DNA of 64,000 bases, taken from assembly GCA_964016885.1 (NCBI GenBank), contig OZ024745.1:52886001-52950000 (forward strand), written 5' to 3'. Under the pieces are notes generated by a model. The model was not told the origin of the DNA. It saw only the letters and a list, made by a program, of their open reading frames with translations, and made no database searches. Position 1 is the first letter of the stretch, and every line of letters begins with the position of its first letter. Made by a program: the position numbers and the translations under genes. The stretch is from Eledone cirrhosa. Taxonomy: Eukaryota. Shown piece after piece: positions 7,675 to 63,901 of this stretch.

Positions 7675-9187
7675 TATTCCCCTTGCTTCTGCCGAATGTT
7701 GATGTTAGCTACCATTGTTTTTCATAGCTATAACTTTCTAAATATTTATTTATAAACATACTATATTTCTTTACAAATATGAAAATCAAATACCTCATAA
7801 TATTTATTTGAATTAATCTATTTTGCTCAAAACAGCGATCCACTGCAAGTCTTTCTAATTTTTGGGATAGATTTCTACATTCTTCATCTTTTCCCTCAAT
7901 ACATGCTTAAACATCTTCTTTTGCTCGATCTGTTTCTTTTTTCTCTTAATAAGTTCCCCATAAAACAATTGCTTGTGAAGATGACATGTGGTTCTATGTA
8001 TTCCCTATAATAAACAGGCGAAACTCCGGAGTAATAAGAAACAGTATTTAGCCTTAGTAAGATGAATATTAAAACTCTACTTCGATATTGAGTACACCTT
8101 TCTCTCAACCGTCAACCACATGCGGATATATATATATAAATGTATATACAAAGTGACTGGTTCTTACGTAAAGGTGTACATATATATCATCTTTTATATA
8201 TTCTGATTCACGCATCAAGAATTGTTATGATCGTTAGTCATATGCTCAGCTTTGTATTTCAGATTCACATACATATAGTTATTCAGAATTACACCTATAT
8301 ATACAACAATATACAGTCACCCTGTCACCCAACAAACACAAATCTATATTTTCTTGCGTTATTTTATAACGATATTATTTCTAACCTATTTTTCACTGTT
8401 TCAAATTACTAGTTTTTTGTTATCATTCACAAATTTTCATTTAGTCAATAACATTTTCATAATTTTATACATTTTAACTTTATTGCATTAATTTGTTTAT
8501 TTTATCTATAATATTTGTATAATTTGTACACACACACACACACACAAATAGACACGTATATATATATATATATATATATATATATATATATATATATATA
8601 TATATATATATATATATATATATATATATATTCATTTAAATTCAACTCCTTGCTTGTTGTTCATACATTGTTCTTTCAATTCAATATTTTTCTATGTCGT
8701 TCTACAACCAATTATTGTTTGTTTATTTCCACAGACGATATAGTACGTACAATATTTATTCTAATAGCTGAGAGGTAAAACATCATACGCAATATAATTA
8801 TACGCGTCAATTCTTTTGATTTGGTATTTTTACATAGAACACATATATATACAGGTACAGATGTGTGCGTGTATATACGCATACTCATTGGAGTGTCTTT
8901 GTATATAATACATACACACACACACTGATATATATATAGGTGTATGTGTGTGTTTATCATTTGATAATTGATTCTGCTCACTTTGTGTAGTCCCACAGGT
9001 AACATCATATTCTAGAACAATAAGGTGCAGTTTTTCAAACAATACAACAACAGAAAGAGCAGCATCGCAATCATGAAACATCACAAAGAATATCAGGAAT
9101 GCATACGTTTATATATATTTAGATATATAATATAGCATACACAATGTGTATGTGTATTCCACATATATTTTCATATATAGATATATA

Positions 9188-9373
9188 ATTGTTTCTACTT
9201 TTGGCACAAGGCCAGCAATTACCCAGTGTATTGCTGGTACTTTATTTTATCAACCCCGCAAGGATGAAAGGCAAAGTTAACCTCGGCGGGATTTGAATTC
9301 AGAATGGCAAGGGCCGTAACTCTATGCGTCAAAGCATGGCGTCCGACCCTCTACCGATACTGCCAATCCACCG
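9188..9373 (-). mobile_element. tRNA-derived SINE
   Basis: Reverse complement reads head...TTCAAATCCCGCCGAGGTTAACTTTGCCTTTCATCC...GATAAAATAAAGTACCAG...GGCCTTGTGCCAA..AGAAACAAT. A closely similar copy is at 32242-32430. Confidence 0.85.
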
Positions 9374-9942
9374 ATATATAATGTTGTCAAATATTATGTG
9401 TGGAAGTATTACCTAAATCAATGCAATTTTATAGTTTTACCCGGTGATTTATTTTCTAGAAGCTCCAGTTAACGACCTGATTGGAAAGCCAGCAGTCCAT
9501 CTGAGGAAGGAGCCCCGCTTGTTGGGGTGACGCTGGCCATCGTCCGCGGTAATTGTTTTGCGACCATGTCCGTGCGGCGCAGCCCGAACTCGTGGTTGCC
9601 TGGGCCTAGAGCCCATTACCCTCCTTTTTCCCCTCCCATTCTTCTGTGATCCTAGTTCTCTTGCCTTCGCCTTCTTTTTATTTTTTTTATTATTTGTAGT
9701 GATGTTATTATTTGAAATAGATTGATTTACCAATATTATTTTTATTTTTATTTATAAAAGATTTTTGCTATTTTGTTATTTAATCTATTTGATACACATT
9801 TCATCTCCTGAATCCAAATAATGTATATAATTAATCTTAGTCTTAATTGTGAGAATCAAAATAGTAGTCTTAAATTATCAAACGATAAATTTAGTGATGG
9901 TTTTATATCTAACAATTATTTACCTACTTTCATTTTTTCCAT

Positions 9943-10036
9943 TCTCTCTCTCTCTCTCTCTCTCTCTCTCTCTCTCTCTCTCTCTCTCTCTCTCTCTCTC
10001 TCTCTCTCTCTCTCTCTCTCTCTCTCTCTCTCTCTC
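9943..10036. repeat. (CT)n microsatellite
   Basis: Directly visible. Confidence 0.95.
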
Positions 10037-61887: not shown

Positions 61888-62345
61888 ATGAGACTGGCTG
61901 GAGTCACCAAAAATATTTAAAATACAAACTACAAATTTTCACCTTCGAAATAATCCCCCCCTCGAATCTAGCACACTTTTCCATACTTCTCTGCCTTGCC
62001 TCCATTCACTCATGGAGGCATTCTCCCAAGATCCTCCACATCTCCGTTGTCACAGCCTTCTTGATGGCTTCCATGTCCAGAAAACCGATCGTACTCGAAG
62101 ATCCTTGGCTCGCCGCCGATGTAGACTCTCACTAGAAAGTCTCCTTCAGTTTCAAGACGCTCAAAAATTTCCAGACACACATGCATGTGATTCTACTTCT
62201 GCTCAACGTTCAGCAGCCTCGGCATTATCTACACATAGATCTTCCGCATGCTCAAATATTCGGTAATGATGTTCCAAACGCTATGATGATTCATTCCCAG
62301 CTCACTTGTGATCATTAGAACAGTCTGCCGATAATCGCTTCATCT
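61888..62345 (-). mobile_element. Internally deleted mariner transposon relic
   Basis: RQTVLMITSELGM..VWNIITEYLSMRKIYV*IMPRLL..EQK..RLETEGDFLVRVYIGGEPRIFEYD is joined directly to FLDMEAIKKAVTTE..QRSMEKCAR..DYFEGE. TIR-like remnant aatgagactg next to (TA)n. Confidence 0.85.
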
Positions 62346-63774
62346 CTGTACAATTTTCCGTAATATTCCGAGTGCTTCTAAGGGAGTGCTTCCCCATACG
62401 GACCATAAACTACGGGTTGTTTCATTGCTCTGTGCCCGACGGTCAAATGTTGAGGAGATAACGAAAGCACATAAAAACGCATACAATAGCTGCAAAGAGT
62501 TGCGATTGCTGTTATGTACTCCCGGTCACACGGTGACGTAAACGGTGAATCCCTATGCCACTGATAGCTCACACAGCACACTAAGTCCTGTTGCGTTTCT
62601 GACACACCTCGTATGTAGTGTACGCTATCATTTCTCCGTGTAGCACCTTAGTGTCACAGAACTCATCAGGCTTATTTATTTCATCAGCCTCATTTGGGTG
62701 GTGAAACACATTTATATTTCTCTTTCGATACTTCACTTATCCCTTGGGGGTCTGTGGTCAGTGATCTATTTTTATGGAAAAGTGGCCCTACCCTGATTCT
62801 ACTGAGGTGATTTATTTTGCAAATTTAAAGAATTTAGGGTTTGTCTTAATACCTACTAGCATCTATTTCTTTGCTCCTCATTTGATGGATGAATCTGAGT
62901 TTAGTTTCAATTCCAAACAGAATTTGTTACAAAGTGTATTCCCCGTTGTTCTTTAGTTCTATATTTATCCAGTTTGAGAACTTTGTTCTCCGTCACATGA
63001 GGATGTTTCTACATGTAAATTTCACCCAGTTTGTCCGTAACGACAGCATTGAACATCACAATGAAAGTTAAACACGCATGTAGCACATATAATATGACAC
63101 ACATGGGTGAAGGAATTTAATGAAATTCAAATTCCGACAGCAACGTTCATTCTAATGTGATAGAATTGCTTTCTGTAAAGAAGCATCAGCACATGCTAAT
63201 TTCCTCCACAAAGAGGATGATTCTATGCAGGTCTTGAAATGTTTCAGGTGAATTTATGAACTTTATTCTTTGAAATACACTAAAAGGAAATTCTAAAAGT
63301 ATTATGTATATAATTCCAAAAAATAGATTACATTAGTCGTGTCTGTAAAGTAATATTTAAAGACGGATACCTATTATACGGGGTTGGTGTAGAATTAACT
63401 TCTTCCGTTGTTTCTGTATTTATATATATATATATATATATATATATATATATATATATATATATATATAAGACAATCACCAGGCAGACGAATGCGAGAA
63501 TGTTCTCCAACCCAAGTTAACCAGGAATCTTTAAAATTCTTCCCACCGAAGTTAACAAAGAACTTACGGGATCTACGAACTTATAATATTATAATATTAT
63601 AAAATTAAATCAGAAAGATTGTTTTAAACACTACAAGTGAAGTCATTCTTTTCCTTTTTTTCAAATATACCTAACTGTACCAAGGATCTCACACATTTTC
63701 CAAAATAAATATATATATATATATATATATATATATATATATATATATATATATATATATATATATATATATAC

Positions 63775-63901
63775 GTTATTCCGGGTTGAATCGGAGGTAA
63801 CCACAGTAAGTAAGGTACTCAATACATAGCAGAGTATAAAAGTTTTAATATAGATGAGATTCTACAGGACTAGAACTGTTTCATTCATTAGAAATCATCA
63901 G
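63775..63901 (-). mobile_element. Second copy of the 16661-16788 repeat, embedded in (TA)n
   Basis: Reverse-complement match to 16661-16788, with (TA)n on both sides. Confidence 0.8.

Follow-up and report, generated by a model that had tools for sequence, protein, structure and literature searches.

A bulged hairpin in twin copies at the element ends of Hydra-clade Penelope-type elements in Eledone cirrhosa DNA

Five families of short repeats in a 64,000-nucleotide stretch of Eledone cirrhosa DNA (the window, analysed over its whole length) had been noticed to carry the same TYGAGTRC box shortly before a (TA)n run while resembling one another little elsewhere. The box had been read as a conserved cis signal for RT recognition or 3'-end definition in (TA)n-targeting Penelope-type elements (PLEs). 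Here we ask what the box is, which elements the short repeats derive from and where their ends lie relative to it.

The box and the short repeats of the window

TYGAGTRC occurs ten times in the window. Seven of these occurrences are the sites named in the original prediction, according to which GAGTAC or GAGTGC follows TT or TC 30-50 nt before (TA)n, and all seven were found (Table 1). Sites are numbered here by the first base of the 8-mer, in place of the GAG start or the low coordinate used earlier. Alignment of window copies gave scores of 178 and 229 for the pairs within families and of 14-30 for the 19 pairs between families, compared with shuffle maxima of 20-34. The few between-family pairs at or just above the shuffle maximum mostly span the hairpin described below. 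Save around the box, the families are thus as unalignable as had been claimed, and the counter-reading that all five are one diverged family with uniform conservation fails, since the flanks cannot be aligned and the families are distinct.

The positional enrichment expected next to (TA)n was observed. In an unselected sample of 644 kb (the window plus 58 stretches of 10 kb, chosen without regard to the motif), the box lay in the last 70 to 17 nt of 42 of 761 complex (TA)5 flanks, whereas control zones of equal size further upstream held it in 3 and 5 of the 761. The host genome is 3.0 Gb in size and rich in (TA)n; across it, the box followed by 25-55 nt and (TA)5 gave 54,543 forward matches, a count driven mainly by a few large families, against 2,630 for a comparable reversed control. 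The rarer GC variant gave 11,628 matches against 1,014 in the control. No genome-wide enrichment was found for TTGAGCAC with (TA)5 (1,687 vs 2,207 in the reversed control), a pattern that served solely for fetching GAGC variants.

Table 1. Short repeats and other features of the window. H1 is the hairpin that contains the box; spacing is given in nt from the box end to the TA run.
Feature	Position	Strand	H1	Box	Spacing	Structure
F9 copy	8003..8125	+	8074-8095	8088-8095	30	decayed hammerhead, H1, 30-nt tail, then (TA)n
F0 copy with tail	13331..13468	-	13402-13377	13384	47	3' half of hammerhead, H1, then (TA)n
F0 inverted tail-less partner	to about 13514					adjoins the 13331..13468 copy
F1 copy	16657..16790	+	16727-16747	16740	50	hammerhead, H1 (5' arm with one decayed base), tail, (TA)n
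F6 long copy	21303..21524	-	21396-21345	21352	41	hammerhead-like part, long-loop H1, 42-nt tail, (TA)n
F6 inverted short partner	21526..21611	+				stops just before H1
F0 copy	27615..27755	+	27684-27709	27702	46	5'-truncated in hammerhead stem II; 46-nt tail; (TA)n at 27756-27831
Hy1 broken RT fragment	47571..48529	+				other Hydra-type PLE; pLTR has H1 and H2
F5 copy	49540..49864	-	49632-49591	49598	42	complete type I hammerhead, H1, 48-nt tail, (TA)n
F1 copy	63774..63901	-	63835-63815	63822	48	flanked by two (TA)n runs
468-bp tandem repeat	27840-29181					2.9 copies, 99% alike; hammerhead-like core per unit
Relatives of the 468-bp tandem	21612-22243, 27072-27585					
Fold-back (inverted) repeat around TA runs	49921-50666					hammerhead-like core
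Fold-back (inverted) repeat around TA runs	58135-59230					
Broken non-LTR retrotransposon RT frames	36445-37624, 54086-55992					Pfam RVT_1
GC-rich 173-bp tandem repeat	24060-25462					strong C skew, two blocks

The box had been placed downstream of an intact or decayed hammerhead-like motif. This held for four families but not for F6 by descriptor, where none of eight copies gave a hammerhead. A complete hammerhead was matched in one of the seven window copies (49598, F5) and in other copies of F1, and a hammerhead core is visible by eye in F9 and, as a U3-A8 core, in the F0 master copies described below. The U3-A8 variant is known from Cercyon PLEs (PMC4209133). An intermediate view of F0 as lacking a hammerhead core (47 matches, mostly chance junctions) was revised on finding this core in its masters (L392-L394, L399), whose hammerhead also has a long stem II. 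Among 138 F0 alignments, 99 begin 41-80 nt before H1, inside stem II, although these start positions are partly biased by the first query; stalling of the RT or the start of transcription may be the cause.

AATAAA or ATTAAA is present in four families, as had been stated, and missing from F0, but its position is not fixed, varying from 20 to 90 nt from the box. In three host families it is the cleavage-site/stem I strand of the hammerhead. Because of this varying position and frequent part in the ribozyme, it was rejected as a poly(A) signal. An Rfam scan of the window yielded no curated family among the 150 matches listed of 327 weak ones, and nearly all of those listed were microsatellite-driven miRNA/snoRNA artefacts.

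Other repeats of the window were noted alongside. The two fold-backs are likely head-to-head ends of other PLE families. The 468-bp tandem repeat, which has a further relative at L351 and showed no canonical bulged hairpin by eye, is a candidate retrozyme.

The bulged hairpin and its covariation

The box makes up the 3' arm of a hairpin with a bulge, which consists of RCTC, a short stem-loop, a 2-nt bulge and GAGY-RC. RCTC pairs with GAGY, the bulged bases are TT, TC or TA, and a variable stem-loop closes the top. The conservation of the box was therefore rightly predicted, but what had been taken for a linear box is one arm of a structure. GAGC replaces GAGT in most other species; GAGC families of the host (L189, L204) pair with GCTC, whereas ACTC is retained where GAGC arose as a stray mutation in ACTC families. 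The arm-to-arm distance ranges from 12 to 23 nt and reaches 44 nt in host families. Every one of the 11 host box families with multiple copies had the hairpin, compared with 1 of 11 singletons, the loci behind this comparison having been partly chosen by box patterns.

A first metagenome scan and a viral scan found nothing. The metagenome set analysed here comprises 78 loci in 54 families, taken from the best 80 of 411 confirmed stretches. Sequence before the ATG sufficed for a strict hairpin descriptor in 41 of these families, and it matched there in 35; past the stop codon it matched in 23 of 46, the latter figure reflecting that many contigs end early or at the short site. Within ORF interiors the descriptor matched once in 100 kb. 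Matches in UTRs numbered 99 in the sense and 20 in the antisense direction, the antisense ones being unsurprising given the dyad and the existence of inverted copies.

For a test blind to pairing, GAGYRC boxes were sought in the last 135 nt before the ATG of 38 metagenome families (from the same best 80 of 411). Two boxes were found in 28 families, one in 8 and none in 2. Among the 64 boxes, 57 were accompanied by an RCTC arm; pairing appeared in no register but that with a 2-nt bulge, and the first position was Watson-Crick in 56 of 57 (C-G 42, T-A 14). Watson-Crick cells numbered 124 of 171 against 66 +/- 5.6 after shuffling, with a shuffled maximum of 88 in 5000. The alignment of these 57 boxes with three window copies (A3) was 99.3% paired and held 20 double changes against 5.0 when shuffled, although p-values overstate and double changes are inflated, as copies and related families are not independent, and the lower stem adds little covariation, being nearly invariant. 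The hairpin is a conserved structure with compensatory changes across families.

G-U pairs (8) did not exceed A-C pairs (11), a result compatible with either strand and with an RNA or a DNA form. The stability of the hairpin was ordinary (z from 0.1 to -1.9), the predicted minimum-energy fold clearly held the proposed stem in just 2-3 of the 7 window copies, and many copies of the second hairpin introduced below (H2) have a single pair above the bulge. Among six published Hydra consensus sequences inspected by eye (PMC8557442 File S7), the hairpin was clear in three, degenerate in two and not evident in one; it lies near the 3' end in Hydra-2_Amil and Hydra-2_Ajap, and two lie in the 5' leader of Hydra-1_Ajap. 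No paper listed in the literature searches describes it in its title or abstract, subscription papers and Repbase notes being outside the scope. Hydra-clade PLEs are a known kind of element; their paired hairpin with its fixed relation to both ends appears undescribed.

Autonomous masters and the ends of inserted copies

Four of the five window families (F0, F1, F5 and F6) trace to ORF-bearing Hydra-clade PLEs, and these copies are therefore 5'-truncated pLTR ends rather than SINEs. The F5 copy of the window, for instance, is the 3' end of an autonomous Hydra-type PLE. The families are distinct, as had been proposed, but four of the five are cut-short ends of larger elements and not dedicated short families. 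The box was also to be sought in the pLTRs of autonomous PLEs, and ORF-bearing Hydra-type elements do carry it there. A reading as SINEs or retrozymes was rejected for the four families, whose copies are solo or head-to-head and whose masters have ORFs. F0 copies nearly all begin inside the ribozyme, unlike whole-hammerhead tandem units. Searches for a full-length, ORF-bearing F9 master gave none.

Two further families have the same build. Hy1 is abundant, with intact copies that contain an 821-codon open frame and Hydra-clade motifs, and its pLTR runs in the order hammerhead, H1, element end, H2, ATG; Hy2 follows the same plan. The type I hammerhead descriptor matched in the pLTRs of F1, F5, Hy1 and Hy2. 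The F0 master is a tandem 3.54-kb Hydra-type PLE with a 717-aa ORF (e.g. L393). We forecast, ahead of the master searches for the window families, that H2 would lie just past the long end of the copies. This proved right in F0 (6-9 nt beyond the long end in nearly all of the 100 matches listed of 368), in F5 (6-9 nt, 79 pattern matches) and in F6 (6-9 nt in two of five matches; master ORF broken). The F1 masters contain a Hydra-type ORF, but their H2 is degenerate, a plain 4-bp GCAC/GTGC stem without a bulge; searches demanding a canonical H2 found no F1 master, while a looser search found them. Some copies among the F1 masters (L469-L488) fuse the first ORF codons back to the hammerhead region, and the resulting mini-tandems of a few hundred bases, with both signals included, could be non-autonomous sources.

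The five ORFs compared are 37-52% identical. An RWK-type N-terminal motif and DKT instead of DKG were both found in F0, F1, F5, Hy1 and Hy2, and the broken F6 master showed RIRWR only. A CxCx5C linker before a C-terminal GIY-YIG-type endonuclease was found in F0, Hy1 and Hy2, the families that this comparison covers, the F1 and F5 ORFs being clipped by locus length. Pfam gave no significant domain match on Hy1. Insertion into (TA)n, partial tandems, an inverted truncated partner and a one-sided tail were all seen. Judged by motif comparison, the elements qualify as members of the Hydra clade.

All collected host loci were mapped onto single-copy references, with ends at the centre of search-selected loci excluded. 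The six host families together gave 277 (TA)n junctions, of which 260 fell no more than 15 nt upstream of the 5' arm of either hairpin (F0 92/94, F1 30/40, Hy1 52/53, Hy2 56/57, F5 21/23 and F6 9/10), with modes of 6-9 nt. In unselected DNA, 58 of 66 junctions fell within 15 nt of an arm. These zones contain 34 of the 146 TA dinucleotides of the references, and the other 112 take 17 of the 277 ends in total; ten of these 17 belong to F1 and fall in a TA-like tract 17-20 nt before H1. Most ends adjoin TA or AT in the master, and the main short end of F1 has one base of microhomology only. In about ten metagenome families (best 80 of 411) the 3' copy departs from the 5' copy 2-7 nt before H2; in the others it continues into a tandem ORF or diverges earlier. 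Several EN-anchored host copies have no hairpin before the first TA run, which is partly due to internal microsatellites and short ends.

H1 and H2, at the junction of pLTR and ORF, are spaced 71-102 nt apart in the six host families and 37-86 nt in 28 metagenome families. Since the junctions adjoin H1 and H2, the box seen in the copies (H1) belongs to the short end, whereas the long end is signalled by H2, a hairpin that the inserted copies lack. The 30-50 nt between box and (TA)n is therefore the distance to the lost H2. The predicted tie between the box and the 3' ends stands, whereas an end at a fixed distance from the visible box gives way to a twin-hairpin geometry.

A docking model, its rivals and known systems

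Starting from the observed hairpin with its covariation, twin arrangement, end offsets and ORF-bearing masters, we propose that the RT probably docks on the hairpin as RNA and begins copying just 5' of it, so that two hairpins would give rise to the tail. An endonuclease would nick (TA)n, and the nicked (TA)n would prime the cDNA. Bound at H2, the RT would produce the long end, in which H1 and the tail are kept; bound at H1, it would produce the short end, which keeps no hairpin. The tail would then equal the H1-to-H2 spacing. Use of both nicked strands may yield the head-to-head pairs of long and short copies, such as that of F6, and early stops the 130-320 nt pieces of the window. Making a long end would call for a transcript that runs through the pLTR and on into the beginning of the ORF. 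Tandem arrays, as observed in F0, or circles generated by the ribozyme could be its source, and solo copies that retain only H1 would lead no further. The model is favoured by the RT of Poseidon_Ac, which begins internally at two sites that bound the tail (PMC11167929). It is weakened by the weak predicted folding, the lack of G-U asymmetry, the minimal upper stems of H2 and the F1 exception, as well as by the missing F9 master and by the three of six published Hydra consensus sequences without a clear canonical hairpin.

The main rival, which we consider unlikely, is that the motif acts as DNA, either as a double-stranded dyad or as a cDNA hairpin, and that its recognition by the GIY-YIG endonuclease leads to a cut 6-9 nt upstream, which would resolve the insertion intermediate and create the two ends. 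Craig et al. ascribe the tail to EN-mediated resolution (PMC8557442), and in earlier work cited by Frangieh et al. the EN of D. virilis Penelope needed the tail for recognition (PMC11167929); the absent G-U asymmetry and the weak RNA folding would also agree with such a role. However, the variable arm distance and the covarying pairs above an asymmetric bulge accord better with a single strand that folds than with a dyad in DNA, and the only reconstituted PLE has RT start sites at the ends of its tail (PMC11167929).

Another view, to which we give little credence, holds that the hairpins are expression signals (a promoter element or a site of translational self-repression) and that ends adjoin them only through access being blocked by a bound protein or by structure. 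Both hairpins do lie 20-135 nt before the ATG, and the promoter lies in the pLTR (PMC11167929, citing earlier work), but the ends keep to within a few nt of each hairpin across six families whose spacings range from 71 to 102 nt, and the distance to the ATG is variable, that of the H2 box being about 20-47 nt in the metagenome families and about 70 nt in F0. A dual role of the hairpin, in expression and in RT start, is possible. It is very improbable that the box is a neutral relic of ancestry and that TA microhomology with the (TA)n primer alone sets the ends. All traced families do belong to one clade, and most ends adjoin TA or AT; yet the motif is kept with double changes among unalignable flanks and divergent proteins, the TA sites outside the zones take few ends, and the F1 short end has its single base of microhomology, so that the pairing-blind test and the junction mapping largely refute this view.

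One abundant family of non-Hydra PLEs (L419-L443), with an RYVDD-type RT that we take to be Neptune-like, also has a hammerhead, a (TA)n target and two ends about 60 nt apart, and the bulged hairpin is absent from this one control family. As a signal of (TA)n-targeting PLEs, the motif thus holds for the Hydra clade but not in general. Master copies of the control family have AATATCG directly after both ends, which may be this other clade's counterpart of the twin start signal.

Hydra-clade PLEs as published share with the present elements the C-terminal endonuclease, the RW(K/R/T) and DKT motifs, the CxCx5C linker, a type I hammerhead in the pLTR, (TA)n targeting and partial tandems (PMC8557442). 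Inverted 5'-truncated, often head-to-head tail-less partners were likewise reported by Craig et al. (PMC8557442). Their tails are 30-40 bp and their units 'generally under 3 kb', whereas the host tails here measure 71-102 nt and the F0 unit exceeds that size, and the sections of that paper drawn on here do not describe the hairpin (PMC8557442). In Poseidon_Ac, as in the model proposed here, two starts bound the tail and RNA 3' of the start is required; there the RT needs RNA to +172, about 55 nt past a start at 111-118, and both strands of AT-rich targets are extended (PMC11167929). Poseidon_Ac belongs to another clade, and unlike here its sites lie inside the ORF in an AC-rich stem-loop, and the main text names no twin docking motif (PMC11167929); the evidence for the present elements is genomic only. 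Non-LTR retrozymes and non-autonomous PLE derivatives are also short hammerhead repeats related to pLTRs (bioRxiv 10.64898/2026.07.22.740005; PMC4209133). Unlike retrozymes, the window copies are solo or head-to-head and in many cases truncated within the ribozyme, and master copies of four families extend into an ORF.

More broadly, and more tentatively, PLEs in general may use a paired, clade-specific 3' RNA docking signal, one per start, that would give both the tail and the head-to-head insertions. PLEs are the closest retroelement relatives of telomerase, and their tail has two competing explanations (EN resolution and internal RT starts). A motif of 25-45 nt that recurs in dozens of families and several hosts at a set distance from both ends makes the choice of RNA and start site testable. 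If the broader view is true, a 30-nt hairpin would be a portable tag turning any RNA into a template for a telomerase-related RT. The motif also provides a rule by which element boundaries can be annotated, and it identifies a very abundant class of short (TA)n-embedded repeats in this 3-Gb genome as an abortive PLE product.

In the 3' stem-loops of LINE/R2 elements and the template-adjacent elements of telomerase RNA, a structured RNA binds the RT and fixes the start of copying. Unlike these, the proposed hairpin would lie 3' of the start, be omitted from the copy and, being present twice, give rise to two alternative ends.
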